Shown in pieces: positions 34,766 to 55,500 of a stretch of DNA of 64,000 nt. The notes beneath the pieces are model-generated. The model did not search any database and had not been told where the DNA came from. It worked only from the letters and a program-made list of their open reading frames with translations. How positions within the stretch are numbered: the first letter of the stretch is position 1; each line of letters begins with the position of its first letter. A program made the translations under genes and the position numbers. Origin of the DNA: a virus; IMG/VR virus record IMGVR_UViG_3300033146_000946, positions 1 to 64,000 of that record; one strand, written 5' to 3'.

Positions 34766-34794
34766 AAGGGAGAGTCTTTACTCTCCCTTTCTTT
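34766..34794 (+). terminator. Intrinsic terminator
   Basis: AAGGGAGAGT-cttt-ACTCTCCCTT followed by TCTTT. Confidence 0.8.
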
Positions 34795-34968: not shown

Positions 34969-35505
34969 ATGAATTTAACAAGACAAACCAAGTTATATAA
35001 ATCTACTTTTGATGATAAAGAAGTAATATATCGAACTTTAAATATAACTGAAATCAATGTTATTAATAATATATCTAATACTTATTATAAATATGATGTA
35101 GCATATGATCTAGCAGTAATTAATAAAGATGATGAAATCAATTATTTAATTAAACAACAAATTGGAAAAGATATTATTGAATCTTCAGCTTTATCTTTAT
35201 CTGACGATATGATATTATCTTTAACTGTTGATGGATTTAGAGAATCAGTTAAAAATGATTTTACTTTAACTCTAATTCCACAAATAATGAATGTATTAAA
35301 TGTTAATTTAGAATATCTACTATCTTTAACAATTGATGATTTAATTGAATTAACTGCTTTATGTGAAATTATGACTAATAAAAAAATATTTAAAGATATA
35401 GATATGCCAAAAGAAGATGTTGCAATTAAAAATGATAATCCACAATTTTTTCCAGAAGATGGAAAATCATTACAAGATAAAATGAAAGAACTAGAAGGTT
35501 TTTAA
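34969..35505 (+). CDS. Second tail assembly chaperone candidate
   Basis: VIYRTLNITE resembles IIYKPLSRND of the preceding gene; coupled to the giant gene. Confidence 0.55.
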   Translation: MNLTRQTKLYKSTFDDKEVIYRTLNITEINVINNISNTYYKYDVAYDLAVINKDDEINYLIKQQIGKDIIESSALSLSDDMILSLTVDGFRESVKNDFTLTLIPQIMNVLNVNLEYLLSLTIDDLIELTALCEIMTNKKIFKDIDMPKEDVAIKNDNPQFFPEDGKSLQDKMKELEGF

Positions 35506-38500
35506 TGTCACACTATGATCCTTATCAGGATAATAACGATAGCTATTATAATCCGCAAAGTAATGTTAATAATAAAGAAAGTGTAGTTCATTCAATAGGC
35601 AGTGCTATTGGAGAAACTGCTAAATCTTTAGTTGGTCAATTAATTGTTCATACTGTTGTTAAATCTGTTGGAAAATTAGCAGGTCGAGGAATCGCAAATG
35701 CTCAACGTTCAAGAGCTACAATGAGATTAAAGCAGAAGAATTTATCATCTTCTCAAAGATCAATGTATCAACGATTATCAAAAGCGGAAACATTTACAGA
35801 TGTATTATCAGCTAGAAGTAAAACATTCGATAGGGTTAGAACTAACGCATGGCGACAAAAGTCAAAAAATATTTTAGAAAAACGTGAAAATGTTTATAAT
35901 AGATTAAAAACTAGAAATCCAATTGGAGCGGAAGCATATAAAGTTAAATCTGCTTTTAAAAATTCTGATACATTTATGGCTGTAGCTATGCATAATGTAG
36001 GTGAATCTATATTAGAAGGATCCATTATAGGATACGCTTACGATGCAGCTACTGGTCAATTAGGACATATGGGTGTAAGAGACGATCTATCTACTTGGAA
36101 TTTACCAGGACATGCTGTAAACTACGCTAAATATATGGTAAAAAATGCTGTTAACTTTGGAGTAATGGGAAATCTTGGTAATATTAAAAGATTTGGCCAA
36201 GCTGGTGCCGCAAATGTTGGTAAAAATTTCTTGAAACATAATAAAGGTTTTGAAGATGCAGTATTAGGATTTGCATCTAAAGTATCTAATGTTAGATATA
36301 AAGGTGCTATGAAACATGGTAGTGATACTGATTATAAAGCACAAGCATTTCAACATGAAATAAATGATAGTTTATTAAAGAAAGTAAAAGATAATGTTGG
36401 CGCAGCACTATCTACTTATACCGATACTATTGCTCCTATGATGCATGAATCATTACATAAACCATTTCAACGCAAACCTACAAAAACACCACAACCAACT
36501 GCTACTCAAAGTGCTGTCAAATTTCAAGATAAAGTTAAACATGGATTGGATCAAGTAAAAAATAGTTTTGAACATAAACGTAATGAGCGAGCAAATAGAT
36601 TATCAAAAGATGTAGATAAAGGTGGATTTGCTATTGCTGATGTTTTATCAGATATGGGTGCAAGATCTAATAATCAATCTGTATTAACTCAACATGGTAA
36701 TTCTAAACAAGCTATAGATGAAATGTTAATGAACCAAAAATCTAGTAGAGGATTTTTAGCTCAAATGTTTGGATTACAACAAACATCTTTAAAAGATACT
36801 TTAACAAAAGATAAAATAGCTGATATAGCTCATGGTATATCTAAATTTACTGATACAAAAGAAGAAATGTTAATTAGACAACTTGGTAATGTTAAAGTTG
36901 GAAATACATTTTTTAAAAAAGGTAAATTTAATGTAGATATGAATTATATGAATCCTCTAAATGTAGTAAAAAGAGGAATGGCTAATATACTTCAATCTAA
37001 TGCTAAAATGTTATATAAATTACCAATGGTTGGAAAATCATTATCATTGGGTGCTATTACTATGTCTGATACTATTCTTGGTACAGAATATAACGCTTTT
37101 TCTTTTAATAATACTGGTACTGGATTTGGATTTGTAGTAGGAACTAAAGGTGGTCCTAAACAAATAGATGATTTATTACGTGAACCTGGTATTTTAAAAC
37201 AAGGATCTAATACTAGTGGCGTTAATGTACATATGGTTAATGATAAATTATATGCTATAGATGGTGCAACTATTACTAAATTAGATTCATATAATGTAGC
37301 AATTAAAGAAACGAGTCCTGCATCTAAATCATTAAGTGAAATGAAAAAGCATGATATGGAAGAATATTTATATCAGAATGCTAAAAACACAGTACCAACA
37401 TCAAAAAGCGAAGCTATAGCAGCTTATGCTAATAATATTAAAAAACAACGAGATGGTTTAGGGTTTTTTGGAAAATTATCAGCTGCTGTATCATGGGATA
37501 AATTAAGTTCTAGTAATGCTATGCAAGGTTTAAAAGAAATCTTTAATATGAAGATTATGCCTAATGGACAAGTACATAGTGTAAAACAACAATTATATGA
37601 CCAAATGGTTGGATCATTTTATGGTAAAGATCCTATATTTAATAAACAAGAAATGATGTCTGTTGGTCGAACAATGTTAGAATCTACTGAACATCATTTA
37701 GCTAATGTTATAAATAGACCACATGTAATAAAACAATTAGCAGAACGTTCAAGTGGATTTATGAATAAAAATAATCTTGGATGGATGTGGGATGATACTG
37801 AATTTGTTCAATTATTACGAGAAGGACGAGCACCTAATGGTGTTATTGATAAAGATTTTTATAAAACATTTTTATCTGATGATGAATCTAAAGCATTATA
37901 TCATACAGTAATACAAAATCCTCGTCGAGCTAAAAAACATATAACACGAGATAGAGTTGGAGCTAGACCAGATTTAGATGCACTTACACAATTACGTACT
38001 AAATTTGCTATGAATGGTTTAGGTAAAGTCGAAGGTGTTGATAGAATGTTAAGTGGTGCAGATTTCTTACATAGACAAGGATTAATAAGTCATTCAGAAG
38101 CAACTGCTATGAAACTTCATGGTAAATTAAATACTATGTTTGCAAAATCTAAAACCTATTTTGGTGAATTAGATCCTGAAATAGTGGATTTAACAGAAAT
38201 GCAAAAATTGTTTAAAGGTAAAAAAGATGGTGTAATAATAAAACAAAATGAATTATTAGATTATGTTATGCAAGATGAAATGCGTAAACCATCTTTAGTT
38301 TATTCAAAAGCAAGATTAGCAGATACGTTATATAGAAATCCAGATGCACCTATGTTTGGATTAGCTCGCGATACAACTCAAGCGATAGGTATATCCTATA
38401 AAAGTGATTCTGATAAGAATATGGCTATGGGTTTAAAAGTATTAAATGTAGGAGCAAATAGAGTATCACATCTAGTATCTGATACATTTAATGCTGTTGG

Positions 38501-41500
38501 TATTGGTGGATTTGAATATGATAATTTCAGATATGGTACTGGTATGTCTGGTTCATTTAAATATCTTGCTAATACAGCTGGTAAAGTAGCAGCAGCAGCT
38601 TTTGCATATAAAGCTATTGATGCTGCAGTTGCATCAGCTCCAGTATTTGATCAAACTGGATTACAAGATGGTATAACAGGATTTTTAGCTGATAATGTAG
38701 CAACTACACATTTAATAGCATCTAAAGCATTAAATTTTACAGGTGTTGCAGGAGCAGGAAGGTATCTTGAAGGGTTAATGCCAGGATTTACATCATCTGC
38801 ACCAGGAGCATTGATTGGTGGTGCTCTTAGAATGGCTGGTGGACCAGGAGCTATGATTGGTGGTGCAATACATGGTGCTATTTGGAATCGAATGTTATCA
38901 GCATATATGCCAGATTTTACTAAAACATATGAACAATTACAAAAAGAATATTCAGGTGAAGAAGAAGTAGCTATTGTAGAAGGTAAAGGATGGTTATTAG
39001 GTACTACACCATTCCAAGGTAATAAAATAGTTGGTTATAAACCAAATTGGTATGTTGAAGCAAAATCAAGATGGAAAGCATCAGATACATTATATGGTTC
39101 TGAATTTAGAAAATTAATACATGAACCATTACCTGGAATAGGTGCTAATATTGGTGATATAATAGATCCATATTATATGGAACGAAAACATTTCTTCGAT
39201 AGGCCATATCCTGTTACTGGAGGATTTTTAGATGAAGTTCCAGTATTTGGTCCATTAATAGATGCTACGTTAGGAAAAATATTTAAACCTAAAAAATTAA
39301 TGCATCAGAAATTTTTAAATGGTGATTCATCAATTGAACATTCTGAAGTTACAGCTATGCCAGTTATACCAATGTCAGAACAATCAGTACATATGCGTAG
39401 TGCTTCACCAATGAAAACAACTAGTCGACATATTAGATCTAATTTTATGGGAGCATGGGTTTATCCAGGTGATCATGCTTCATCAGCACAAATGATAGCT
39501 GATGATTATATGGCAGGATTTGAAAATATGATGGGTTTAGTTGGTTTTGCTGGTGGTGTTGGTAGAACTAATTTAGTAGAACATGAACGTGTAGTTCCAA
39601 CATTAGAAACTGCTGGTAGAATGGCATCTATGACTAGAAGTTATAATGATATGGCATTGGGAGGAATAGGTACTTTATCTGAAGCAATGAGACGTTTTGT
39701 AGGTAAACCAGACCATAGAAAAGTCGGTGTTAATCCAATTCCAAATATGCTTCCAAACTTTCTACCAGGTAGATTTTTAACTGGTGATCCATATGAAAAA
39801 ATAATGAAAGGTGAATTAAGATTACCTGGTACTGCTTATGAAAGAACACATGATATTAATTATGCTATGCCAGGTCGTGCTTCAATGTTCGGTGGTAATT
39901 TAAAAGATATCGTTGCATATTTTACTGGACATAAATCACCATTATTAAAAGAAGAACATGATATATTGGAATATGGTACACATGCTCACGAAGCTATTCA
40001 AAATTGGCTTAAAGCTGAAAATATATTAATATCTGCTGAAAATTTAGTATATGATACAAGAAATAATGTGTCTGGTCATATTGATGGTGTAATTCGAGAT
40101 GGTACAGGTGGTGGTGGTAGAAGAGCTCTTGAAATAAAAACTATATCAGCTAAAGGTTTAAAGAAATTATCAGGACCAAAAAATCAACACGTTGGACAGT
40201 TAAATTTTTATCTTCATGAAATGAAGATGAAAAAAGGTACAATATTATATGTTAATAGAGATAATCCAGCTGAGTTTAAAGTATATGAAATTAATTATAA
40301 TCGAGATAGATATACAAAAGATTTACAAAAAATACATCAAGCTAGAAAAATAGCGTCTGGTATGATAGCACAATCTAAAACGGGTATATCTAAAGGTTTT
40401 AGTTATTCTTGGACAGATAGATTAAATATATTAGCTGACGTTGCGCCAGCATCAAAAGAATTCAAAGAAGCAAAGTGGATAGTTGAACAACAGATAAAAA
40501 ATGGAATGATGGATGAACGTGGAATGAACAAATATAGAAAAGCGTTAAAACATCGACAAGCTACTTTGAGAACTTATGAATTATATCCTACTAGATTTAG
40601 AGGACAAATATTATCACCTGATGCTGAATATAATAGACAAAATGAAAATTATAATATAAAAGCAGGAGCAGAATATAGTTTACCAGAAAGAATAGTTGGA
40701 GCAGTTTGGGAAGAATTTTTAAATACAAATACATTTTTAACTAATAAGTTTTTTGCATTTAAAGATCCATTAGAACATTATTCAGAATATCAAGTATACG
40801 GAAAAGAATATACACCATGGACTGATCCTTATGGTTCATTTGTAAAACCAAGAATAGATAGAGTATTAGGATCAACTGATCCTTTTAAAGGAGCAATAGC
40901 AGGTTCTATTGATGGAGCATATTTATTTGGTGGTAGTCCAATGGCAGCAGTTGGAGCATTTGTAGGTGCTGCTGTTGGTGGTGTTAATGGAATCATGAAA
41001 AGACAACAAAGATGGCTACCTGGAAATATTAAAACTGAAAGACAAATTAATGATTATTTTGATACGTTAGAATATTATAAAAATGAAAGAATGGCAACTT
41101 TGAGTTATGGTATGGAATATGATAGATATAAAAATGCAGCTAATGCTACATTCCATAGTTTAATACAAAATGAAAGTACGGATTATACTAATATATATAG
41201 ATCAGCTTATACGTCAGAAAAACCATATCTATCTGCCTGGTTAAATGAAACTAATCCTGAACGACAAGAAGAAATTTTAAAAATTGTTCCTGAACGATTA
41301 GGAAATGTGTTAGTTAGTCATTGGCAAAAAGAAGGATCAAAAGTTAATACTGAAGATCATATTGATAAAATGTCAGCAGGTTTATTACAAAAACATAATC
41401 CAGAATATGATATGAGAATGTTAGATCCAATGTTACGAACAGAAGATATTAAATTAAAAGCTATTAATAATGCTGGATTAAATGCTCATGATTTTGGATT

Positions 41501-41786
41501 AGGTTGGGCTCCACAATTATTAAGAGCACAAGATGCGATGGATAGAATGCCAGATCCAAATATTAATCAAATTAATTTTAATGAAAATAATGCAGATATG
41601 ATGGATCCAGGTACAGTAAAAGGAGCAATAATGAATATGTTACATTCGATGGGATTAAAAGGTAGAGTTACAGTATTTATAAATAATCATGTAGATGGTG
41701 GATCAAATAAAGCAACTATAACATTACAGCATAATAGAGTGCAAGAAATTCGTGATGCTGTTGATTTTAGAGAGAGGTATATGTAA
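35505..41786 (+). CDS. Tape-measure-position giant protein with glycine zippers and a PD-(D/E)XK nuclease domain
   Basis: Position after chaperones; GxxxG-rich segments; GTHAH..GHIDG..LEIKT..QLNFY. Confidence 0.75.
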   Translation: MSHYDPYQDNNDSYYNPQSNVNNKESVVHSIGSAIGETAKSLVGQLIVHTVVKSVGKLAGRGIANAQRSRATMRLKQKNLSSSQRSMYQRLSKAETFTDVLSARSKTFDRVRTNAWRQKSKNILEKRENVYNRLKTRNPIGAEAYKVKSAFKNSDTFMAVAMHNVGESILEGSIIGYAYDAATGQLGHMGVRDDLSTWNLPGHAVNYAKYMVKNAVNFGVMGNLGNIKRFGQAGAANVGKNFLKHNKGFEDAVLGFASKVSNVRYKGAMKHGSDTDYKAQAFQHEINDSLLKKVKDNVGAALSTYTDTIAPMMHESLHKPFQRKPTKTPQPTATQSAVKFQDKVKHGLDQVKNSFEHKRNERANRLSKDVDKGGFAIADVLSDMGARSNNQSVLTQHGNSKQAIDEMLMNQKSSRGFLAQMFGLQQTSLKDTLTKDKIADIAHGISKFTDTKEEMLIRQLGNVKVGNTFFKKGKFNVDMNYMNPLNVVKRGMANILQSNAKMLYKLPMVGKSLSLGAITMSDTILGTEYNAFSFNNTGTGFGFVVGTKGGPKQIDDLLREPGILKQGSNTSGVNVHMVNDKLYAIDGATITKLDSYNVAIKETSPASKSLSEMKKHDMEEYLYQNAKNTVPTSKSEAIAAYANNIKKQRDGLGFFGKLSAAVSWDKLSSSNAMQGLKEIFNMKIMPNGQVHSVKQQLYDQMVGSFYGKDPIFNKQEMMSVGRTMLESTEHHLANVINRPHVIKQLAERSSGFMNKNNLGWMWDDTEFVQLLREGRAPNGVIDKDFYKTFLSDDESKALYHTVIQNPRRAKKHITRDRVGARPDLDALTQLRTKFAMNGLGKVEGVDRMLSGADFLHRQGLISHSEATAMKLHGKLNTMFAKSKTYFGELDPEIVDLTEMQKLFKGKKDGVIIKQNELLDYVMQDEMRKPSLVYSKARLADTLYRNPDAPMFGLARDTTQAIGISYKSDSDKNMAMGLKVLNVGANRVSHLVSDTFNAVGIGGFEYDNFRYGTGMSGSFKYLANTAGKVAAAAFAYKAIDAAVASAPVFDQTGLQDGITGFLADNVATTHLIASKALNFTGVAGAGRYLEGLMPGFTSSAPGALIGGALRMAGGPGAMIGGAIHGAIWNRMLSAYMPDFTKTYEQLQKEYSGEEEVAIVEGKGWLLGTTPFQGNKIVGYKPNWYVEAKSRWKASDTLYGSEFRKLIHEPLPGIGANIGDIIDPYYMERKHFFDRPYPVTGGFLDEVPVFGPLIDATLGKIFKPKKLMHQKFLNGDSSIEHSEVTAMPVIPMSEQSVHMRSASPMKTTSRHIRSNFMGAWVYPGDHASSAQMIADDYMAGFENMMGLVGFAGGVGRTNLVEHERVVPTLETAGRMASMTRSYNDMALGGIGTLSEAMRRFVGKPDHRKVGVNPIPNMLPNFLPGRFLTGDPYEKIMKGELRLPGTAYERTHDINYAMPGRASMFGGNLKDIVAYFTGHKSPLLKEEHDILEYGTHAHEAIQNWLKAENILISAENLVYDTRNNVSGHIDGVIRDGTGGGGRRALEIKTISAKGLKKLSGPKNQHVGQLNFYLHEMKMKKGTILYVNRDNPAEFKVYEINYNRDRYTKDLQKIHQARKIASGMIAQSKTGISKGFSYSWTDRLNILADVAPASKEFKEAKWIVEQQIKNGMMDERGMNKYRKALKHRQATLRTYELYPTRFRGQILSPDAEYNRQNENYNIKAGAEYSLPERIVGAVWEEFLNTNTFLTNKFFAFKDPLEHYSEYQVYGKEYTPWTDPYGSFVKPRIDRVLGSTDPFKGAIAGSIDGAYLFGGSPMAAVGAFVGAAVGGVNGIMKRQQRWLPGNIKTERQINDYFDTLEYYKNERMATLSYGMEYDRYKNAANATFHSLIQNESTDYTNIYRSAYTSEKPYLSAWLNETNPERQEEILKIVPERLGNVLVSHWQKEGSKVNTEDHIDKMSAGLLQKHNPEYDMRMLDPMLRTEDIKLKAINNAGLNAHDFGLGWAPQLLRAQDAMDRMPDPNINQINFNENNADMMDPGTVKGAIMNMLHSMGLKGRVTVFINNHVDGGSNKATITLQHNRVQEIRDAVDFRERYM

Positions 41787-44700
41787 TGCCAATAACTGAA
41801 ATTTTAGGTGAAGAAATTGAAAATGATAATGATAGAGTAAACTGGTTTGGTAGAGTAATGGTTGGTGGTATGTCTGTTTTAGGACTTGTTGCTATTGCTA
41901 ATAAGATTGGTGGTCCTACAGGTAAAGCTATAAAATTATCAGTTGGTGATCAATTAGAAGAAGAAGTAATAGATGCTGTTAATAAATATGGAAGACAAGC
42001 TGATAAATTAAAATCACCAAGTAGTTTAAAACATAAATTACCAATTAATGGAAAATTAGAAGTAGTTGGAAAATTACCATCAGAACAAGCAATTTCTAAA
42101 TTTGAACGTGTAGTAAATTCTCAAGATAAAATAAACAAAATGATGGAGACACCAACATCATTATATAATAAAATACATGAACTTGAGCGTTCTATTTCTA
42201 CTGTTATTAATGGTGTTGAAAATGGTGATCCTATGATGAAACAGATTAACGCATTACATGGAATAGTTTCAGCTAAAGTTAGGACAAAAGATGCTAAATC
42301 TGATGCTAATAATTATTTATTAATGGCAACCAAAATAAATGCAATGAGAGATTATAGTACTACTGATGTTAAAGGTGAATTAGCACAATATTTAGATGAA
42401 GATATCTGGTATGATAATTTCTTAACTGAAATGAAACCATCTGATATGATTAAATGGAATCAAAATAATGAAACTTTAATAAAAAGTGATACATCATATG
42501 CTAAAAAATATTATAAACAATTACAAAATTTAGAAAAAGAAATTTTAGCTAATAAAATTGCTAGTTCTGCTAATAGTAATAAAGCATTAGAGCTAACACA
42601 TAATAAATTATATGTAAAAGATGCTTTTATGCCTGTTGGTGATTTATTAAATGATGCAGCAGGTTATGTAATAAATGTTACTAATAAATCTATCGAATTA
42701 TTTTCATCTGATTTTAGTAATAATAAAATGAGTGTTGGAGAAATAAAACAAGTAATCGATAAATCTATATCTAAAAACGTTGGATTAAAATCACAATACG
42801 GATCAGAATTAAGTGATATAGCTCATTTATTAGATCAATTTAAAACTATGAGTAATGGTAAAATTACTAATGTTAAAATGACTTATAAAACCACAGAACA
42901 AAGAGGTGTTGAAAAAGCATATGTTGTAATTAATATAGATAGAAAATATGGAAATAATAATACTAGATCATTTTCTATGAATATACCATTAGTTGATAAA
43001 TTTAATATTGTACCAGATATAACTAATACATCACATTTTGGATATGGTGTTGCAGGTATAATAGAATCATTACCAGGAACAAATAAACCAGCTACAGCAA
43101 TAGATATATCTACTTATTATATGAGAACTGTTAAAGATATGTTAACTCAATCTATAATGAGTGAGGTATTATTTACTGATGAAGAATCATTTAATGATGT
43201 ACAAAAAAAATTAAGAAGACCATTATTAGCAATTCAAGATCAATTAAGTGCATTAAATGGTGAAGCTAGAGATATTTTTGCTACAGGAATGTATATACCA
43301 AAAACGCATTTAGATTTAATTGCTGATAAAACAGGTAGTAAAAAAAGACAATTAGCTGATGGTGCTAAAACAATAATAAATATGTTTAATGATAGTAAAA
43401 GAAATACTAATAATGATGTATCTATTGTTTTAGACTTAGAAACAATTCAATTATTAGGAAATGGTTCAGGAAGATATATGTCTGTAAGAAATACTACTTC
43501 AATTTGGTCTGTAGGTTTTTCTATTTTTAAAGGTAATGAATTAATAGATGGTGATCAGATTTCTTCTATGCATGCTTTAAAAGAGCATGATTTATTACGA
43601 GCATATGAAGTTGATAAAGTTGATAAAGGATATATAGCTAGGATGATTGATGAAAATCCTAATATCCGTAAATTTGCTAGATTTGCACAGAAAACAGTTG
43701 GCGGTTCAACTGGTGATGATTCAGTAAGTTTAGCTATAGCATTAAAAAAACATATAGAAATGGTACTAGATGAATCAAACGGATCATTATCTAAAGTAAC
43801 AACAATGCCAGGTATGGGAAATTTTTCAAGTTCAGTTGAATTTGCTCAATCTTTTGTTAAAATGTTGAAAGCTAAAATACGAGATTTACAAGATACTTTA
43901 CAACCAGGAGCAAAGATCACACTTGAAACTGCAAATGGTACTGATTTCGATATAAGATTATTAGAAACATTAACTGGTGATATGGGTTCTATAAGAGATA
44001 TGGTTGAATTTAAAGATATAACTAATGTAAGTAGAACTATGAAATTTGGTAAAAAAGGTATGTTAGGTGATCAGTTAATGCATATCGTTAACCAGTTAGC
44101 ATGGGATCAAGGATATGATAAAGAACATTTTAATGTAGAAGCTAATCCATTAGAAGCATTAAAACAATTACAAAAGAATGGATTAATGAAAACTAATAAA
44201 AATGGTGGTGATATATTAAAATTTGTTGGCGGTAAAATAAAAGGTAATATGGGTTTACATAATTCAGCATTATTAGATACTGTAATGACAAAAGCTGCAG
44301 TTATATTAGCTGAGAATGTAATTGCTAAAGATACTAGTCATGTAGATAAAGCATATGAAATTTTAAATTTATTAGAAAAATATCAAAGAAAAGATTATGA
44401 AGCAACTATTGCTGATTATATGGAATCATCTTTAGGAGTAATAAATGGTAAACAAGTAACTAAATCTGGTATTAGTATGCAACATCGTGTTGATAATTAT
44501 TATACACATTTTAACGTAGCTGATGTTATGCCATTATTAGCAAATAATCCAGTATCTAAACAAGCAAATCAATATTTAAGACATGGTTGGTTTCAAAAAA
44601 ATGTTAAAGCTGCATATTGGCGATATGGAAAAATGATTACATCTCCAATAGAAGAAGTAGCTACAGATTTAGCATATAGAACTACAGGATTTGATAAAAA

Positions 44701-47700
44701 TAGATTTGCTAATAAAGTTATATTAAATACAGCATATACAATTGGTGGATATGGTATGCAATCTGGATATAGTGCTATACCTAAATTTATAGATGATGAA
44801 TTTGATCAAATGTTATATAATCAAAAACGAGTTCAATTTAATTTTGCTGATACTGATTTTCCAGATGCATCTATGTCTAATACTATTAGAGAAGTATATG
44901 ATAAAGCTATGGTTAGAGCTCGTAAAATGATGAGTGATAAAGGATTAGGTCCAGTTAAAAGTAAGCATAAAATATCCAAAAGTGTATTAGAAGAAGCATT
45001 TAGAATAGAATTAGGAAATATACAAAATAAAGAATCTTTGATATTAGATCCAGAAAACCCAATACATCAAAATATTATGTTTGGTGATGGTAAATTAAAT
45101 ATTAAACAAAATACTCCAGGAAAATTAGTAGGTATTGAATTAGGTGGTGATATTAATAATGATAAACCAGCTTCAATGTTATTATTATTTGATTATAAAT
45201 CTTCTTTAAATTTACAGATAGATCATTTACCAGATAATAAATCAGTTGTTACTAAATTACAACATGTAGATCAAGAAGTACTTAGAACTATGGGTAGAAA
45301 ATATACACATGGATTAATTGAATCACAAGTAGATATGCGTACAATAGAAAAAGGATATACTGGAGAATTACAAAGAAAAGCATTATTAAAAATAATAGGA
45401 CATGTTAATAAAATAGGTCATATTGGGTCATCAGATGCATCTAAGAGAGTATGGACTGATTCAGAAAAATTTGCATCTGATAAAATAATGAAAAAAGTAA
45501 TATCATTGTTTAAAGAAAAAGCTGCAACAGATGGTATGCATGTTGGATCTATTGATGAAGAAAATGGTTTTAAATCATTTATATTTGGTGCATTAAAACC
45601 AGGAACAGTAGATGTTAAAGAACAAATGAATATGTTATCTACTATTAAAATGTCGGATATTATGGATATATTTGGTGAAGCAGGTGGTGATCTCATACAT
45701 GATTATAAAAGTTTAAAAGAATATTATGGTTTATTTAGTAATGATGGTATAATTGAAACTGCTCATAATATCGATTCAAAATTAGTAGCTAAAGGCTTTT
45801 CAGAAAAAGGTACAAAAGAAGGAGATTTATTAGAACAAATGTTAAATATGGATGATACTATAAAAGAAAATAAAGCATTAATAAATCCATTTCAAGCAGC
45901 TGCTAATAAATATAATAGAAAGCATGGTGATAGTGCATTACAAAAAAAATTACAAGGATACATTGATGCTAATGATTTACAATCTGCTGATAATTTAATT
46001 AAGAAATTAAAAATTGGAAAATTATTTCAAGCAGTAGGTGATATGAGTGCAGTTAATAGAAATATTATGGCTGGTAAAACTGGAGATGAAAGGTTTGATA
46101 AATTAATGGGTATTGTTGTTCCTACTATTCATCACTTTAGTGATTCTCAATCTATGAAACAAAAACAAGTTAATAAAACTATTAAATTTCGAGCTAATTA
46201 TTTTGATACAATTTTTCATGAAAATTATTTACCAGAAAGAGTAAAACAAGTATTAGCATCAAGTCAAGGTTGGAAAGCTGACAAAGCAGGTTTAGATTTA
46301 GTTAAAACATCTCGTGCAGTTATAGACATGTTTAAAAATAATAATCTTAGTAAATTAATGACTAATTATAGTTTAAATCAACAACAAATGTTAGATATCA
46401 TTGGTAATCCACTAACTAATAAACAAATAGATAGAGCATTAGAAAGATTAAGTTTAGCTGATGGTAAAAGTTCAAAGAGAAAAGCTGCTATAATTAGTGA
46501 AGTAATAGATAGTATTAAAAAAACAGGAACAACTATATCATTAGAAGAAGAAGAAGAAATAAGATCTAGAAGTATTAATTATTTTAAAGATAAATTGATT
46601 GCAACTAAAAACAGACCTTCTTCTTTATCAGCTACCGAAGCATTACATGTAATATCTTTAAGTGAAGATCAAAATGCTAAAGTAGTTGGTTTAAAATTTT
46701 ATGAATATAAAGAACTTGATAAAGATACAGGAAAATTAGTATCTAAAGTTATATCAAAAGAAACTAGAGCTAAATTAATTAAAAAAGGTATTAGTAAAGA
46801 TCAATTCAAATCATGGGGTGGACAAATTAGATTTGATTTAGAAGATATGATATCTAGATTGAATGAAAAAGAATCTGATCCATTTAATCTACGTCAATTT
46901 ATTGATCATTTTTCACATCTTAAAAATACACCTGGTCGTGCTGATAATAGAATCTTTAATGTCAAAGAAGTTAATGGTAGAAAAATAATTGAAATGAACG
47001 CATTAGTTATGCCAATGTTTAGTGATATTAGAAATGTATTCAATCAAATTGGTGATGTTGAAGGTTATGGTGTTGCTACAAAAGAATTTAAATTAATGCA
47101 AGAAGTCGCTAATGGTTTAAAAGATTATGCTAATTCCTTTATTGATGGTAAAGGTAATAATTCTATGAATAATAGAACTGGTGACGACTTAGCTTTTAAC
47201 TATTTCCAAATGTTAGGTGGAATTATGAATTTTGGAAAAGATTCACAATTATTTGATGCTGTTAAAAAATTCCATTTAGTAGGTAGTAGACATACATATG
47301 GTGTAAGTGATCAACATGTATTATTAGCACAATATACCTTAAAAGGAATAGATGGTAAAAGTACTGGTTCAAAACAAAGAATGTTAGATTTTTTCAAAAA
47401 AAATAATATGGATGCTTCACAACAAAGTGCATTTATGGATCAGATAAGAAGTGTAGCTTTATCTGATGGACATACAGCATTAGTAAATGCTGAAGATTTT
47501 TTTGGTGATAATATAAAAGTAAATACAGGTAATGGTAAAAGTATGACTTTTGGTCAAATGTTATCTGATGCAAAAGCTAATGATAAACATTTATATAATG
47601 AATTATTAAAAATTCAAAATGGTAGAGCAACTATGCCAGGTTTCACTGGTAGATATCCTATCCCATCAGCTGGAGAACTTGGATTATCTATGGTTAATAT

Positions 47701-49291
47701 TTTAGGTCTTAGTAGAGAAGTGATGGATTTTTTAGGTATGAGTACTGATATGACATATTTTAATTCTGTTATAGCTGAAGCTCGTAAAGCTGATACTGAT
47801 GGTGATGAAACTGAGTTAATGCAATTAGGATATAGAACAATCGAACATTTAAATGAAATGAGAGCAGCAACAAAAGAATCACATGCTAGAACTGTAGGTA
47901 GTCATGGACTTCAATATCTTATTAATGAATATAATAGAAGTGGTGCATTAATAGGTAAGGAAATGAAAGGTGGTGTAGAATATTATAAAGTTGGTAAATT
48001 AGCACCTAATGGTTCAATGATTGAAGAATTAGTTACAAAAGATGAATATTTTAATAAATTTGATTCAGGTATATCTAAAAATTTTAAAAAAATTCTTAGT
48101 CAAGACTGGATAGAAGGAACTAATATACATAATATAGCAAATGGTGTAGAACGTCATTTAGCAACAGGTGAAATTGGTACAGCTGCTCAATCATTAATTG
48201 GTTTAATTTCTAATACGATGAGTGAAAGAGTAAAAGATTTACATCGTTTAAATAAAATACTTCCTGATAATGTTCCAACTGATATAAACTTTTTGGATTC
48301 AATTCAATCAATAAAATTTGGTATGGCTAATATGCATCAAACTGCAATTGCTATGGGTAAACATAATACGTTTGAAAAAGCAATAAATTTAGCACATGCT
48401 ATTGGTTTCTGGGAATCAAAAGTTAATAATAAACAAGCTTCACGAGAACAAGTTCAAGCAGCTGAAAAAGCATGGATGCATAATTTTTATGATGATTGGG
48501 ATACAAAAAAATTAAATCCATATTGGGAAAAAAATGACGAAACAAGAGCATTTGTTCAAAAACAACAAGACTTATTTAATACTTTTAAAACTGCTATGCC
48601 ATTTATAGATCAAGTTTATAAAAAAGATCCACAAATAGGAAGATACTTAAAAAATGAAAGCGATTTATCTAGTGGTAAAATGGGAACAGATATTACTGCT
48701 GCATTATGGAATGAATCTATGGATCATGGTATTTATGATGATGCTATATCTCATATTAATTCATCAACTCGAGAAGCAACAGCAGAATTAATTCAACATG
48801 TAATAGATAAACAAAGTGGTGATTTTAAATATGATAATGGACCTACAAAACGAAGTAAAGCTTTTAATCATTTTTATACTAATAATAATATACATGTTAA
48901 AAATGCAATGATGCATGGTGGTAAATTTGCAGCTTTTGGTATGTTAGCAGTTGCAGCATTAAATATGTTTAAACCTATGGCTGGTACTGGAATTGATGCA
49001 CCAGGTGTACATAATAATTTTACTGCTAGTGAATTACAATTAGATAGAAGAATAGCTATAGATCAAGTTGATGCATCTTTTAGTAAAGAAGCATTTGCTT
49101 ATATGAATGATCAAGATTCAACTGCTAGAGAAAAAAAATCATTATATGGTGCTACACAATTAGCAATATATGATAATTTAATTAGACCAGAACCTACTCA
49201 TAAACAATTTAGAAGTAATCTTAATATACAACAGATAAATAGAATGACTTATATTGGTCCATTTGGTAATTCTAATTTTGATAGTAGGTAA
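41786..49291 (+). CDS. Giant protein: DEDDh exonuclease-like domain plus putative single-chain two-barrel RNA polymerase (virion RNAP candidate)
   Basis: LDLET / NGTDFD / HNSALLD; NKSVVTKL, GRYP, ADTDGD, GEIG, QTAIAMGKH in the expected order. Confidence 0.65.
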   Translation: MPITEILGEEIENDNDRVNWFGRVMVGGMSVLGLVAIANKIGGPTGKAIKLSVGDQLEEEVIDAVNKYGRQADKLKSPSSLKHKLPINGKLEVVGKLPSEQAISKFERVVNSQDKINKMMETPTSLYNKIHELERSISTVINGVENGDPMMKQINALHGIVSAKVRTKDAKSDANNYLLMATKINAMRDYSTTDVKGELAQYLDEDIWYDNFLTEMKPSDMIKWNQNNETLIKSDTSYAKKYYKQLQNLEKEILANKIASSANSNKALELTHNKLYVKDAFMPVGDLLNDAAGYVINVTNKSIELFSSDFSNNKMSVGEIKQVIDKSISKNVGLKSQYGSELSDIAHLLDQFKTMSNGKITNVKMTYKTTEQRGVEKAYVVINIDRKYGNNNTRSFSMNIPLVDKFNIVPDITNTSHFGYGVAGIIESLPGTNKPATAIDISTYYMRTVKDMLTQSIMSEVLFTDEESFNDVQKKLRRPLLAIQDQLSALNGEARDIFATGMYIPKTHLDLIADKTGSKKRQLADGAKTIINMFNDSKRNTNNDVSIVLDLETIQLLGNGSGRYMSVRNTTSIWSVGFSIFKGNELIDGDQISSMHALKEHDLLRAYEVDKVDKGYIARMIDENPNIRKFARFAQKTVGGSTGDDSVSLAIALKKHIEMVLDESNGSLSKVTTMPGMGNFSSSVEFAQSFVKMLKAKIRDLQDTLQPGAKITLETANGTDFDIRLLETLTGDMGSIRDMVEFKDITNVSRTMKFGKKGMLGDQLMHIVNQLAWDQGYDKEHFNVEANPLEALKQLQKNGLMKTNKNGGDILKFVGGKIKGNMGLHNSALLDTVMTKAAVILAENVIAKDTSHVDKAYEILNLLEKYQRKDYEATIADYMESSLGVINGKQVTKSGISMQHRVDNYYTHFNVADVMPLLANNPVSKQANQYLRHGWFQKNVKAAYWRYGKMITSPIEEVATDLAYRTTGFDKNRFANKVILNTAYTIGGYGMQSGYSAIPKFIDDEFDQMLYNQKRVQFNFADTDFPDASMSNTIREVYDKAMVRARKMMSDKGLGPVKSKHKISKSVLEEAFRIELGNIQNKESLILDPENPIHQNIMFGDGKLNIKQNTPGKLVGIELGGDINNDKPASMLLLFDYKSSLNLQIDHLPDNKSVVTKLQHVDQEVLRTMGRKYTHGLIESQVDMRTIEKGYTGELQRKALLKIIGHVNKIGHIGSSDASKRVWTDSEKFASDKIMKKVISLFKEKAATDGMHVGSIDEENGFKSFIFGALKPGTVDVKEQMNMLSTIKMSDIMDIFGEAGGDLIHDYKSLKEYYGLFSNDGIIETAHNIDSKLVAKGFSEKGTKEGDLLEQMLNMDDTIKENKALINPFQAAANKYNRKHGDSALQKKLQGYIDANDLQSADNLIKKLKIGKLFQAVGDMSAVNRNIMAGKTGDERFDKLMGIVVPTIHHFSDSQSMKQKQVNKTIKFRANYFDTIFHENYLPERVKQVLASSQGWKADKAGLDLVKTSRAVIDMFKNNNLSKLMTNYSLNQQQMLDIIGNPLTNKQIDRALERLSLADGKSSKRKAAIISEVIDSIKKTGTTISLEEEEEIRSRSINYFKDKLIATKNRPSSLSATEALHVISLSEDQNAKVVGLKFYEYKELDKDTGKLVSKVISKETRAKLIKKGISKDQFKSWGGQIRFDLEDMISRLNEKESDPFNLRQFIDHFSHLKNTPGRADNRIFNVKEVNGRKIIEMNALVMPMFSDIRNVFNQIGDVEGYGVATKEFKLMQEVANGLKDYANSFIDGKGNNSMNNRTGDDLAFNYFQMLGGIMNFGKDSQLFDAVKKFHLVGSRHTYGVSDQHVLLAQYTLKGIDGKSTGSKQRMLDFFKKNNMDASQQSAFMDQIRSVALSDGHTALVNAEDFFGDNIKVNTGNGKSMTFGQMLSDAKANDKHLYNELLKIQNGRATMPGFTGRYPIPSAGELGLSMVNILGLSREVMDFLGMSTDMTYFNSVIAEARKADTDGDETELMQLGYRTIEHLNEMRAATKESHARTVGSHGLQYLINEYNRSGALIGKEMKGGVEYYKVGKLAPNGSMIEELVTKDEYFNKFDSGISKNFKKILSQDWIEGTNIHNIANGVERHLATGEIGTAAQSLIGLISNTMSERVKDLHRLNKILPDNVPTDINFLDSIQSIKFGMANMHQTAIAMGKHNTFEKAINLAHAIGFWESKVNNKQASREQVQAAEKAWMHNFYDDWDTKKLNPYWEKNDETRAFVQKQQDLFNTFKTAMPFIDQVYKKDPQIGRYLKNESDLSSGKMGTDITAALWNESMDHGIYDDAISHINSSTREATAELIQHVIDKQSGDFKYDNGPTKRSKAFNHFYTNNNIHVKNAMMHGGKFAAFGMLAVAALNMFKPMAGTGIDAPGVHNNFTASELQLDRRIAIDQVDASFSKEAFAYMNDQDSTAREKKSLYGATQLAIYDNLIRPEPTHKQFRSNLNIQQINRMTYIGPFGNSNFDSR

Positions 49292-49517: not shown

Positions 49518-52500
49518 ATGGCATATATAAACGCTAAAAATGTAGAACGAGTATATCATCCAAGTCAATTAACAACATTATTATATAGTATGATTGATAC
49601 CCTTAAAACAGATATTAAATCTAGTTTTAAGATTCCAGGTACCGTATCTACTCGTCATAAATATGATACCGTTTTATCATATGGTAAATATACATCATCC
49701 TTAGAAAAAGTAAAATATAAAGTATCATTTTTACCAGGACATTTAAATTTAAATACATCTAAAGTATCATTTTTACCAGGACATTTAAATTTAAATACAT
49801 CTAAAGCACACACATACGCTTTAGATGTTATCAGTAAATTATATACTGACACATTTAAATTAAAAGTAAGTGATTTCGTATATCAAAATAATCCAGATGT
49901 TGGAACTTTATTAGAATCAAAAGGACGTGGTTTACAACCAGGAGATATTTTATTAGCTAGAGCTTATAGTTCTACTAATAATTCAGAATATATAGATTAT
50001 TTAACAATAGTAATAGAAGCAAATGATGGAAATTTAGTTACTTTTCCAGAATTATATAAAAATAATGCTGATTTATTTAATATTAAATTTATTAGACAAT
50101 ATACTATTACAAAACCAAGTAAAGAATTAGCTACATTAGCTGGAAATACAGGTCATTTATTTTATCAATATAAAAATACATCTAAATTATCCGCTGAAAT
50201 TATTAAATCTACTAGATTAAATGTTGATGGTTATTTACAAATTGGTGATTTAAAATTCTTAGTAGCACCACAACAATTATCTTTTAGTACACAAAATGGT
50301 TATCAATATTTTCCTACTATAAGAACCAATGGTAATCCGAATATTCCAACTGCTCAAGAAGCAAAACAAGTTAATATAACTTTAATATTTCCAAATGTTG
50401 ATTCAATTAATAATCAATTATTACCATTATTTGCTATGTTTAAACGAACACCATTTGTTAATGTTTATAATAAAGATATAAGTATGTTTTTTAGTGAATT
50501 AAAAGATGAAGAGGATTTTGTATCTTTTGCATTAGAAGATTTATATATACAAACAATTAAAGGATTTCCAAATACTCTACAAGCTAATATTACAATATTA
50601 CCATTTCAAAAAGAATCTTTTGGTTCTGCTTTTAAAGCTTTAAAAACATTTGATGATGTAAAATATAAACAAGTTGTTGAAGATTTTAGAACAAGTAGAA
50701 TAGATAATATAGTTGAAAATATTCAAAATAGATTAAATGATAATAAAGAAATTTATGCAACTAATATTTTTAGAAAAGTAAAAGGACCATATTCAAAATA
50801 TGGTTTTAGATTAACTAGTGATTTCACATTAAGTGAACCATTTAGAGCATATTATCAAGGCCTATTAGCATATCGAACTGTAGTAGAAGATGAATTAGGA
50901 AATATTGTTAAGAAATCTAATAGAGAACCTATATATATTGAAGCATTTAGACCAAAAAAAGCAGCCAATCTAATACATAAATATGTAGCTGAACATAATC
51001 AAAATAGACCTATTGTAATGAATTATAGTTATATTGATGAATCAGTTCGAGAATTTAGAAAAAAGATGAATGATCAACAACAAGAAGCTAGACGTAAAGT
51101 AGCTAAACAAACTAGAAGTGCTAGAGAAATGTTTGAAGCAATTGGTGACACATCATTTAATGAATCTTTAAATACAGTAATTCATACTAGACAAGATTTT
51201 TTTGATTCTATATTAGCTACTTATCAATTTTCATCTTTTGATAATTTCTTTTCAAGAGTATTAGTACAATATGGAGTTGAAGTTCATTCTGATAATGATA
51301 TTGAAAAGATATCTGGTTATCTGGATTTATTATTTAAATATTTAAAATTTGGAGTAAAAGTTGATAATGTATCTTGGAATGATTTAGAAGGTGGATTTAA
51401 TTTAGTATTTGGAAATGCTTTTAAATTAGTTAAAAGTAAATATTCATTTAAAGGTGAAGCTAGGGATCAAATAGATTTATTAACAGGATTTACTTTAATT
51501 GATACTAAAACTAATAAAGAAGTATCTACTAAAGAATTTACAAATAATTTATTAACAAAAATTCAAAAATTATATGTTAATATTAAAGATGAAAAAACTA
51601 AATCTGTTATTGCTGCATTTTGGGATAGTATATTTAATACTATTTCTAGTGGTGGAGATGTCGTAGATTTAAATACCTTTATGTTTAAAAATTTAGATGG
51701 AATATTAAGATCAAGTATTACAATAGATAATGTTAATGATATAATAGAAGGTTGGTCTATTTCATATTCTAATAAACTTATACCAATGCAATTATTAGGA
51801 TTTAAATATCCATTTTATCAACATATTGGATCAAATAATATTAATGTTCAATTATCTATTACTTCTTTACAAAATGGACGTAAAGTTGGATTAAAAGATG
51901 AATTTTCAATATTAAATGATAGATTACAACGAACAGCTAAAATAATATTAATGAATATGCCAGAATTATTAAAATTGTATAATTATACAGTATCATTAGA
52001 CACAGTACCACTTGGTAATATTTTTTCTATTTTTGGTTTAAAACAATTAGTATTTAATAATTCTAATGTTAGTAATATTCCAGGTAAACCAAACGCTTGG
52101 GCTATTACTGTTAATTTTACTCAAGATTTATTAACAATACGAGAATATCAATCAATTGATCAAGTGCCTAATACTTTTGGATTTGCTCCTGAAATTGCAA
52201 ATAAATTAATACGATCTAGAATTATAACTGAAGATAATGATCCTAGTGGTTATGCAAAAGGTGATGTTGTAGTTTATGATTTACAATTAAAAAAGACCCT
52301 GAAAGATAGTGATATAGATTCTGTAGATCCTTCTAAATTTGATCAATCGATTTTATCAGTTCTAATGCCAAAAGAAGATTATACAAAATCAGCTGTATCA
52401 GCTGCTGTAGAAGCACAAGATAAAATTGATAAAAAACGATTAGGACCTATTCAACATGGAGATGAAACAACATATATATCAGAAATAAATAATTTATTTA

Positions 52501-55500
52501 TATACTACTTTGCCTTATTAAAACAAAAAACATTAGCTAAAAAAAATGATATAGATTTATTTAAAGATGATGTAATAAAAGTAACACAAAGTGATGGTAC
52601 TGTTGTAGAACAAAAATTTAATTTTAAAAGTAATGATCAAATTTTAGAAGCATTTGAATTAGTTCCTAATAAAATTGAATCAAAAAAATTAAAAAAAGTT
52701 TTTGATAATAGTGATTTTTTTAGAGATTCATATAAAGGTCTATTAGTTGAAATAGATACATTATATGAGACCAGTGCTGGTATAATGTTAAAAGCATATG
52801 AAGATATTGAAGTAGATCCTCATATTTTTATTGCTGAAGCAATGATGTCTGTTGGTTTTTTTGGGGTAGTAGGTGCTGCATTATTAGGATCATTAGCAGT
52901 TATGACTGGTGGTGTAGCTTTATTAGCTGGTGGTATGGTTATAGGAATGGTTGGTATTACATTAGATCAAAATAAAAAAGAATCAATAAAAGCTACTATT
53001 AGAAAACACCATTCTTTATTAAAAAATATTTTAGATAATATAACATCAAAATATATTAGAGATATATCTAGAATAATTTTACGAGATCCACCAATAATTA
53101 AAGCTTTATATAGTGAAGAATTATATACTGATGTTATGACTATAATCAGAACTGCAGGTATAAATTGTTATAAAGATTTTGATATTAGATTAGATTCATT
53201 AAATGTTTTAAATGGTGAAACATTACAATTTAGTCCAGAATTTTATCTATTTAATAAATATGATCTTAATACTAAAAAAGATGAATTTATTAAAGATCAA
53301 TTGAAAAATAAAATATCTGCAGCTGAAATACAAAGTAATATGATTTTGAAAGAAACAACCGAAGTATTAGATATGTTAAGAAATATTAATGATGAAGTAT
53401 TTAAAGATGATGCTACATTTTTTACTCAAATTAAAACTGATTTAAATTATATAAAAAATAATTCTACATCAAGTGATCCTAATAGTTATGAAATGGATTA
53501 TGATGAATTATTTAAAAAAATAAAAAATGTTTATGGTAAAATTATAGAAGAATATTCAGGTGTATCTAAATATAAAATGATTAATGGTAAAAAAGTTGTA
53601 ACGTCAACTACTAATGGTATTGATATAGATTTATTAAAATTTAATTTGTTAAATACCGCTCGAATGAAACGAGCAATTGAATTAAAATTAATACAAAATA
53701 CTATTAATGATTCATTAAATGCAGATAATCCAGATGATAAGACAACAGATAAATCTAATAAGAAAAATACTTTAGACGCTTTAACTGAAATGGGTATAGC
53801 ATTAGAATCTATGGATAAATATAAAAATTATATTAAAAAATATTTTGAACAATATGTATCTACTGTTGAAATACAATGGAATCCAGATTTATATAAAGGT
53901 GAACTACAAAGTGAATCTTTTAAAACTGCAAAAGAATTAAAAAAAGAAAAAGAAAAAAGAATAAAAGAAGATAAAGAAAAATTATATAATCCAGATGCTA
54001 AACATGGCTCTATTACTAATTTTGAAATTAGTATTTATACTAGATTATATCAATTATATCTTTTAGATTCAGCAATTAAAGATGCAGTTGCTAATGAAAA
54101 AATACCATCTGATAAATATGATTTGTCAGATATTCCAGAATTACAATTACTCAAATGGTATGGTTTTAGATCAGCAGAACAATCAGTTAAAGATATAGAA
54201 TTCCTAGAAAAACTATATCATAGTGATCTTTCACAACAAGCAAAAGGTATGAGAAAATTATTTCCTACTCAAAAAATTTATTTAGTTGAAGAAGATAGAC
54301 ATACATTTAAAAATTTAGATGATTATTATTCTTATGATGCTATTCAATCGATTGATATAGTTTCTAATAAATATTCTGCTGGTAAAACTGCTGTATTGAG
54401 ATTAGGAAATATATATAATAATATAACTGATAAAATAAGTTTGATGACAGAGCGATTAACAATAGAAGAACGTAGTCAATTAAATACAGATAATGTGTTT
54501 ATGGGAACGTTAGATGTTAAACCTGGTACTAAAATTATTATTAAACAAGGTTACGATGCTAATGATAAATTTTTACCTGTTGTATTTATTGGTAAAATAG
54601 TAGATATGAGACCAGGTCCTGTAACAGAAATTATAGCACAAAGTTATGGTACACAATTAAATCATTATATTGAAAAATTAAATTTTGGATTTAAATCTTC
54701 AGCAAATGAACATGGGGATGTAGCTATAACTTTATTAGATCAAATGTTTGGATCTGATGGTCTAGGTAAGATAGATCCTATGAATATAAGAAGAAATTAT
54801 TTTACAGGAAAAAATTTATCAAAAATGAGAGAAAATTCATTTTCTAAGTTTTTAATATCTAATATTTTATCAAGAGTAAATATAGGATTATTTGCAAATG
54901 ATAATCCTCGCGATGATAATATCTTTTTACCAATGAGAATATTAGATTCTATTATGGATCATGTAACATTTGACTGGAGAATATATCAACAAACTATATG
55001 GCAAGCATTACAAGAATTAGCTCTATATCATAAAAATACTTTTCCAATGGTAAAATTATATAATTATGATGGTTTATCTAATTTAGATGAAATACGTGAA
55101 ACTGTTATTATAGGTAATAAAGCTGGATATTATAAATATACTGATGCATTTGGTTTGAGTTCTATAAATTATGCTGCTATTAAAAATGCTCTTGAAGAAT
55201 GGAATGATATTAAAGATGATGTTGTAGATGTATTAAAAACTATTACAAATTTTAGAGCAGTTAATGATACATTAGTAAAATTTTATGCTCATATAGCATT
55301 TCCAATGACTAATTATAAAGGTTCAAAAGTTAAATTTAAAACATTAGTTGATTCTAATTATATTAAAACATTTGATGTACCTGGTGATAATAAAAATGAT
55401 CCACAACATGTTGGAATAGAACATACAACTAAATCTAAAAAATTATCAAAAATATTAAATAATAAATATTTAATATTAATGTTAGTTAAAAAATATTTTG

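Follow-up and report, generated by a model that had tools for sequence, protein, structure and literature searches.

The first 64 kb of the 147,061-bp IMG/VR virus record IMGVR_UViG_3300033146_000946 (CheckV completeness 64%), a stretch of 64,000 nucleotides referred to here as the window, encode on the plus strand a giant protein of 2,501 residues, P0001 (41786-49291, +; delimited from the list of open reading frames (ORFs) and their translations). Taking together motif conservation and structure prediction, residues ~543-849 of this protein (43412-44332, +) are, on balance, best read as a metal-dependent DEDDh 3'-5' exonuclease, which would be ejected from the virion on one chain with an RNA polymerase (RNAP) active-site module and, more tentatively, may act on DNA 3' ends. 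The domain is very probably catalytically active. A family that combines an exonuclease with an RNAP-like part and keeps this pairing in every relative appears to be undescribed in print.

Conserved motifs and predicted fold of the exonuclease domain

The catalytic motifs of the DnaQ family can be followed through the domain in their usual order. The ExoI motif SIVLDLET (residues 546-553; 43421-43444, +) lies on the predicted strand β1 and supplies D550 and E552, both invariant in all 15 sequences of the family, and is followed by IWSVGF (residues 573-578). The ExoII motif ANGTDFDIRLL (residues 716-726; 43931-43963, +) supplies N717, F721 and D722, the last of which starts the helix after β4; D722 is invariant (15/15) and N717 is kept in 14 of the 15, and one distant relative, L016, has I replacing F721. 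FKDIT (residues 742-746; 44009-44023, +), at the end of β5, contains the invariant D744 and corresponds by position to the DnaQ-family segment VTDSLAVAR. Finally, the ExoIII motif LHNSALLD (residues 824-831; 44255-44278, +) supplies H825 and D831, which are separated by one residue more (H-x5-D) than in the canonical H-x4-D arrangement; P0001 shares this spacing with most members, the canonical one being found in P0008, L018 and L019. The initial annotation had read these five motifs, including the extra ExoIII residue, from the sequence, and all of them are present exactly at the residues and nucleotides that it assigned to them. The motifs are set apart by two insertions. One, helical and ~105 residues long, separates β3 from β4 (residues 596-704; 43571-43897, +), is ~30 residues shorter in the distant relatives and opens with the invariant H596, near which E600 is invariant in the nine closer sequences; as far as the sequence goes, this H596/E600 motif resembles the HGIT.E motif of the DnaQ family. 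The other, of ~65 residues, stands before ExoIII.

The conservation of these residues was assessed in a family that spans considerable divergence. When 1.84 billion representatives were searched exhaustively by HMMER with residues 1-1200 of P0001 as the query, eight full-length homologues were recovered (2,414-2,491 residues, 24-34% identity to P0001), and an IMG/VR pattern scan using the family alignment added eight further loci, among them six far more distant giants of 2,258-2,358 residues (L016-L021). An iterated hidden Markov model (HMM) of the domain recovers the exonuclease region in all six of these (L017 at 6e-23 in the first round, L016 at 118 bits in the last), where identity to P0001 over the domain is only 15-19%, and in each of them a DxDxD motif follows ~1,300 residues downstream of the exonuclease region. 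Across the 15 family members, domain identity ranges from 15 to 31%. In the full alignment of the closer set, the residues invariant within positions 540-850 are D550, E552, S561, W574, H596, E600, F686, N717, F721, D722, D744, G755, H825 and D831. Likewise, the nine-sequence alignment of the domain has 15 invariant positions out of 361, and D550, E552, N717, D722, H825 and D831 are all among them (hypergeometric P ~2e-9). Over the full length, the alignment of 15 sequences retains just 29 invariant positions out of 2,501, and seven of these fall in the exonuclease domain (D550, E552, H596, D722, D744, H825 and D831); others are D2003, D2005, D2007 and P1958 of the polymerase-like region described below. 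Since the nuclease residues and the metal triad are both found among these 29 positions, the nuclease site is under the same strict conservation as the metal site of the polymerase. The acidic residues in which the initial annotation had seen a nuclease centre are thereby borne out in the homologues, D550, E552, D722 and D831 being invariant in 15 of 15.

Routine searches do not reach this family. Pfam and PHROGs gave nothing relevant for the whole of P0001 or for residues 500-900, neither the 50,697 phage records searched with P0001 by tblastn nor IMG/VR scanned with this one protein contained a match, and of the word-indexed homologue searches one gave P0001 itself, one nothing and one P0002 (the search among longer proteins being limited to those of 652-2,000 residues). 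A feature search of the ESM Atlas reached scores of only ~0.8, too low to be informative. Pfam, PHROGs and BLAST are blind to these genes of 2,300-2,500 residues, and it takes motif conservation and structure prediction to reveal them.

The predicted structure agrees with the order of the motifs. An AlphaFold2 model of residues 520-880, built from the nine-sequence alignment, is confident (predicted local distance difference test (pLDDT) 83.5, predicted template modelling score 0.86) and runs β1-β2-β3, helical insert, β4, helix, β5, insert and ExoIII helix. In the numbering of the model, the strands 26-35 (carrying D31/E33, i.e., D550/E552), 53-63 and 66-74 are followed by a block of helices (77-185), a strand at 192-196, a helix at 202-211 with D203 (D722) near its start, a strand at 222-225 that ends at D225 (D744) and a helix at 309-329; H306 (H825) immediately precedes this last helix, whose first turn contains D312 (D831). 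This placement of the motifs on the model elements therefore corresponds to a DnaQ-like exonuclease layout with two insertions: the model has an RNase H-like α/β fold with a sheet of five strands, the ExoI D-x-E lies on predicted strand 1 and the ExoII N-x(2-3)-[FY]-D follows β4. Thus, the structure prediction and the structure searches agree with the earlier proposal of a DEDDh (DnaQ/RNase T-type) domain with long insertions.

Among the PDB entries compared by Foldseek, the top 50 matches are all DEDD nucleases (E ~0.01, probability mostly 0.8-1.0). VIA-align superposes these matches with Z of 11-12 and root-mean-square deviations of 3.1-4.6 Å over 156-190 aligned residues, covering known domains almost entirely: 156 of the 166 residues of ExoX, 170 of the 176 of epsilon and 188 of the 203 of RNase T, with the exonuclease domains of ERI, TREX, ExoI, PolC and DinG also nearly whole. 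In a Foldseek-independent comparison with 48,161 representative PDB chains, the DnaQ-like superfamily occupies ranks 1-46 and 49 of the top 50 places, the one exception being an RNase H-like resolvase at rank 47. Correspondingly, structure searches of BFVD and the ESM Atlas return phage DEDDh proteins, exonuclease domains of DNA polymerases and RNase_T families. The structure-based identities are highest to DNA exonucleases (epsilon ~17-19%, Cas2-DnaQ 17-18%, DinG 17%, TREX2 16-17%) and lower to RNases (RNase T, ERI and 3'hExo, 11-12%).

The polymerase-like region and the tail-module setting

The second enzymatic part of P0001 lies toward its C-terminus. In a model of residues 1400-2400, only residues ~1829-2089 are confidently predicted (pLDDT 65-90), and they form a region resembling the active-site double-psi β-barrel of β'/Rpb1 (residues 1829-2089; 47270-48052, +). 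The top 50 Foldseek matches of residues 1829-2079 are largest RNAP subunits only (cellular, archaeal and plastid, and those of African swine fever virus and phage AR9), and VIA-align places 110-175 residues, with Z ~9, onto the active-site regions of Rpb1 (~345-670) and β' (334-636). The region contains R1956-Y-P1958 (47651-47659, +), the counterpart of the RxP found ahead of the metal loop of β', with P1958 invariant and R1956 kept in 14 of the 15 sequences, and the metal-binding triad D2003-T-D2005-G-D2007 (47792-47806, +; DTDGDE, residues 2003-2008), whose three aspartates are invariant in all 15; the fourth position of DxDxD is G, A, R, V or N among the nine closer sequences. Outside this region, K1189 is kept in 14 of the 15 sequences. 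Because the fold match and the RxP ... ADxDxD pattern coincide, a β'-like catalytic barrel in P0001 is reasonably supported by the model. The initial annotation had proposed a fusion to a putative RNAP, and of this the β'-like DxDxD barrel at residues 1829-2079 stands; the evidence covers that barrel alone, so that assignment to the two-barrel type is putative. The Pfam profiles Rpb1_2 and Rpb2_6 have no match on the P0001 gene. No other RNAP was detected in the 147 kb, where the search for T7-type enzymes was uninformative because its controls failed; a weak, sub-threshold Rpb1_2 match (16.4 bits) outside the window, at 86591-86842 (+), falls in a 222-residue ORF (L011 1204-1872) that has no RNAP motifs and is probably spurious. 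The possibility that P0001 combines a two-barrel DNA polymerase with a proofreader, as in PolD, was set aside as less likely, given that the gene belongs to a tail module, that all fold matches are RNAP subunits and that a family-B DNA polymerase is present outside the window (1,141-residue ORF, 109904-113300, -; PF00136, 6.5e-25). With this conventional replicase of its own, the phage does not need P0001 for replication.

The window has a GC content of ~27%, and almost every listed ORF, with no exception among the large ones, is on the plus strand. Among its products are a large terminase (9657-11474), a portal (14449-16326), a major head protein (18976-20286) and a tail sheath (24583-27459), followed farther on by Baseplate_J (58554-59816) and a protein resembling a sheath initiator; this set of head, sheath and baseplate genes identifies a contractile-tailed jumbo phage. 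Compared by terminase and sheath, the cultured phages nearest to it are Moorella phage MTATph1 and two Bacillus jumbo phages, 0305phi8-36 and KLEB27-3 (25-31% identity). Four giant ORFs (1,691, 2,093, 2,501 and 2,559 residues), P0001 being the third, are found in the stretch from the tail tube/chaperone region to the baseplate. Its gene thus occupies the tape-measure slot, bounded by the sheath and the Baseplate_J protein, in an order that is the same in the homologue contigs L002 and L003 and in 0305phi8-36. Indeed, the succession of a giant, P0001, one or more small ORFs, a second giant, proteins of 272 and 169 residues and Baseplate_J is identical in L002 and L003, and L002, L003 and L014-L021 all keep the P0001 fusion together with the genes next to it.

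The giant immediately upstream (2,093 residues; 35505-41786, +) belongs to the same conserved block and is translationally coupled to P0001: the ATG of P0001 overlaps its stop codon (TAATG) and is preceded by the Shine-Dalgarno-like run GAGAGAGG. It contains a Cas4/PD-(D/E)xK nuclease-like domain (residues 1483-1618, nucleotides 39951-40358; PHROG 1706, 1.5e-17), and the block therefore encodes two different nucleases and a polymerase module. In the contig L003 (1-10008; JGI 3300009320) the corresponding upstream giant reaches 3,771 residues and gives weak or faint Hint, intein-splicing and LAGLIDADG matches, which suggests an intein inside this nuclease-bearing giant. A strong terminator-like hairpin with a 10-bp stem and a T-rich tail (34766-34789) is found just upstream of a 178-residue ORF and the two coupled giants, and may indicate that a separate transcription unit begins there. 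The nuclease and polymerase giants are flanked by what look like tail-borne wall hydrolases, namely the 1,691-residue protein (29307-34382, +), with an NlpC/P60 peptidase domain at its end (residues 1552-1638), and the 2,559-residue protein (49518-57197, +), with an endolysin-like region (residues 2128-2362).

P0001 itself contains no cysteines and has a hydrophobic segment near each end, at residues 20-42 (41843-41911, +), with an invariant G43-P44 directly after it, and at residues 2381-2399 (48926-48982, +). Further invariant motifs close the protein in the 15-sequence alignment, ASFS..A (residues 2430-2436) and F2493-G2494 (49073-49270, +). The ASFS..A, F-G and N-terminal G-P motifs, invariant in 15 of 15, are conserved equally to the catalytic sites, and a signal for assembly, cleavage or the membrane is one possible role.

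The cultured relatives offer partial counterparts. In 0305phi8-36 the slot holds gp145 (1,930 residues), gp146 (2,537 residues, annotated as 'hypothetical tape measure protein') and gp147 (1,903 residues, endolysin); mass spectrometry of virions detected gp145 and gp146, which, like P0001, are free of cysteine. The slot is conserved in 0305phi8-36 but its enzymatic content is not, gp146 lacking both motif sets. In KLEB27-3, gp034 (2,434 residues, 'structural protein') has KADYDGD at residue 1933, and an alignment of the P0001 family with it covers only the RxP..ADxDGD stretch, weakly (E = 0.02); its N-terminal 600 residues have no match to the exonuclease-domain alignment. CDS0027 of MTATph1 aligns with the exonuclease domain at ExoI only. 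At this locus (CDS0027-0028; L013 12513-18026) a 1,309-residue tail-slot protein has the exonuclease-like motifs VLDLETT at residue 868 and NVVGFD at residue 989, and a transposase gene follows directly, so that in MTATph1 an insertion element may have broken up the giant gene.

Possible roles of the exonuclease and competing explanations

By analogy with the tape-measure-fused RNAP gp96 of phage P23-45 and with injected polyvalent proteins, both discussed below, P0001 probably rides in the tail and is ejected into the host at infection. Virion-borne RNAPs, such as those of N4, crAss-like phages and P23-45, allow transcription to start without the host enzyme. P0001 would similarly be ejected ahead of or together with the DNA and, joining nuclease and polymerase, would start the infection from the point of entry. 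The exonuclease would then act, as we propose with low confidence, on DNA 3' ends, resecting the end of the incoming genome or nearby host DNA and thereby exposing a single-stranded template or clearing competing DNA. DNA ends are favoured, weakly, because the best structure-based identities are to DNA exonucleases, because the neighbouring giant carries a second DNA-type nuclease and because some virion RNAPs prefer single-stranded templates.

Several observations weigh against this reading. The fold is predicted and not solved, and the clustering of the five catalytic residues is deduced from the fold match; moreover, the ExoIII spacing is non-canonical in most members. Sequence profiles do not recognize the domain: the search for RNase_T (PF00929) that the initial annotation had suggested as a check gave no match in the genome (E up to 10) or in any of the nine homologues, in which Pfam produced only scattered single-member matches, and phmmer and profile searches of PDB sequences with P0001, the domain and the family alignments stayed at chance level. 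When an unedited hhalign comparison was made with an alignment of epsilon, RNase T, Orn and ExoX from E. coli, the ExoI motif alone aligned. This failure of the HMMs is attributed to the two helical insertions, which break the alignment; after both had been excised, hhalign aligned 141 columns end to end with E. coli epsilon (P = 0.005, 24% identity), in a register that matches the catalytic positions to epsilon D12/E14, FD103, H162 and D167. However, the excision was guided by the model and the hypothesis, and the edited alignment is supportive and not independent. DNA and RNA substrates are told apart only by weak trends in identity. The C-terminal model is poor overall (pLDDT 50), with the metal loop below 50. 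Virion location is based on gene position alone, and an hhalign comparison of the P0001 family with gp146 of 0305phi8-36 (L008 14624-22237), which has neither DxDxD nor exonuclease motifs, found no similarity.

The lack of HMM recognition and the unusual ExoIII spacing would also fit a chance motif pattern or a dead RNase H-like scaffold of the kind found in DNA polymerase alpha, Maelstrom and Exuperantia, and inactive exonuclease-like domains do occur among the structural matches. Nonetheless, all five catalytic residues are unchanged in 15 of 15 sequences, some of them only 15% identical, against a background in which 99% of positions vary; such residues are typically lost from dead domains, and the placement of the named residues in invariant columns by chance has the probability of ~2e-9 given above. 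An inactive or accidental domain is therefore highly improbable. An active enzyme might instead serve the transcript, by trimming or proofreading its 3' end or by rescuing backtracked complexes in place of Gre/TFIIS-type factors; coronavirus nsp14 ExoN, which partners the viral RNA polymerase, would be the analogue. That exonuclease and polymerase always share one chain, with equally conserved active sites, speaks for such a role, as does the presence of RNases (RNase T, ERI1/2/3, 3'hExo, PARN and Orn) among the structural matches, and a lone injected RNAP would presumably be without host cleavage factors. Nevertheless, we consider it unlikely, and proofreading of the polymerase's own RNA is a less likely role than action on DNA ends, since the active site of two-barrel RNAPs itself cleaves backtracked RNA and makes a separate nuclease unnecessary, the exonuclease motifs and the metal triad are ~1,150 residues apart with no model placing the domain near the secondary channel, and the structure-based identity to RNases is lower than that to DNA exonucleases.

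The nuclease might also have nothing to do with transcription and be injected as a weapon against host or competitor DNA or RNA, or against linear defence oligonucleotides, alongside the upstream PD-(D/E)xK nuclease. The translational coupling to a giant with a Cas4-like nuclease domain fits this scenario, injected proteins with several enzymes are an established theme (PMC5512222), and the structural matches include Orn/REXO2 and Cap18, an exonuclease associated with the cyclic-oligonucleotide-based antiphage signalling system CBASS. Yet the hydrophobic segments at both ends suggest anchoring at the entry site and not diffusion to the nucleoid, and the strict co-conservation with the polymerase in 15 of 15 members points to a linked role, so that we hold this explanation to be quite unlikely. 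Cyclic signalling nucleotides in particular are unlikely substrates, as they have no free 3' end, which DEDDh enzymes need.

The strict conservation of the nuclease site across a deeply diverged family of tail proteins implies that these phages depend on 3'-end processing of DNA or RNA when infection begins. We tentatively raise the further possibility that the DEDDh domain works specifically with a DNA-templated two-barrel RNAP, through proofreading or rescue of the transcript 3' end or through resection of the entering genome into the single-stranded template that the polymerase needs. In both cases the phage would inject a self-contained nuclease and polymerase and could start transcription without any host factor. 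To our knowledge, no exonuclease coupling of this kind has been described for any DNA-dependent RNAP; if the two activities are coupled, P0001 would be the first DNA-dependent RNAP of the two-barrel type with an exonuclease dedicated to it, and would offer a compact system in which to study how templates are prepared or transcripts edited.

Comparison with known systems

The initial annotation was aware of no characterized protein with this fusion, and the literature is in line with that: neither a full-text literature search nor the papers on gp66, P23-45, N4, jumbo phages and polyvalent proteins turned up an exonuclease domain in a virion RNAP or a tape-measure-fused RNAP. The closest functional parallel is gp96 of Thermus phage P23-45, a virion two-barrel RNAP fused to a tape measure and proposed to transcribe the first genes during DNA entry (10.1101/2022.12.01.518664 / PMC10770324). 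Like P0001, gp96 is a giant in the tape-measure slot with a DxDxD motif of the two-barrel type and membrane segments. In contrast, its RNAP is N-terminal (DFDGD at residue 779) in a siphovirus protein of 5,002 residues, whereas the motif of P0001 lies at residue 2003 of a myovirus protein; there is no detectable sequence similarity between the two, and the word 'exonuclease' is absent from the gp96 paper. Another example is gp66 of the crAss-like phage phi14:2, a single-chain virion RNAP of ~2,200 residues that is strongly active on single-stranded DNA (10.1101/2020.03.07.982082). It resembles P0001 in that the fourth residue of its DxDxD motif can be other than glycine, and the regions flanking its RNAP are large and without recognizable homologues. 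Unlike P0001, gp66 has no reported nuclease domain, is a podovirus cargo protein and not the product of a tail-slot gene, and shares no sequence similarity with P0001. Polyvalent injected proteins are very large, multi-enzyme and delivered with the DNA, and they can pair a virion RNAP with other enzymes (PMC5512222). Their RNAPs, however, are of the N4/T7 type, unlike that of P0001, and in that paper 'Exonuclease' occurs once and 'DEDD' never.

DnaQ-like domains are also mounted on larger nucleic-acid machines in PolC, the DinG of S. aureus and Cas2-DEDDh, which are among the best structural matches of P0001 (9qpc, 8zef/9ii8 and 8h18/8fyc, respectively). The exonuclease is there attached to a DNA polymerase, a helicase and an integrase, and in no case to an RNA polymerase or a virion protein. 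In coronaviruses, the DEDDh exonuclease nsp14 ExoN does work with a viral RNA polymerase; it differs from the P0001 domain in being a separate protein that serves a palm-fold, RNA-dependent polymerase on an RNA template. The domain itself is closest to the DnaQ/epsilon-type exonucleases (epsilon, ExoX, ExoI, RNase T and TREX1/2), with which it shares the predicted fold, the strand order, the ExoI D-x-E, the ExoII N-x3-F-D, a D-T-like motif after β5 and the ExoIII H...D. It departs from them in its insertions of ~105 and ~65 residues, in the mostly H-x5-D spacing, in having no similarity at the level of HMMs and in being embedded in a tail-module protein of 2,501 residues.

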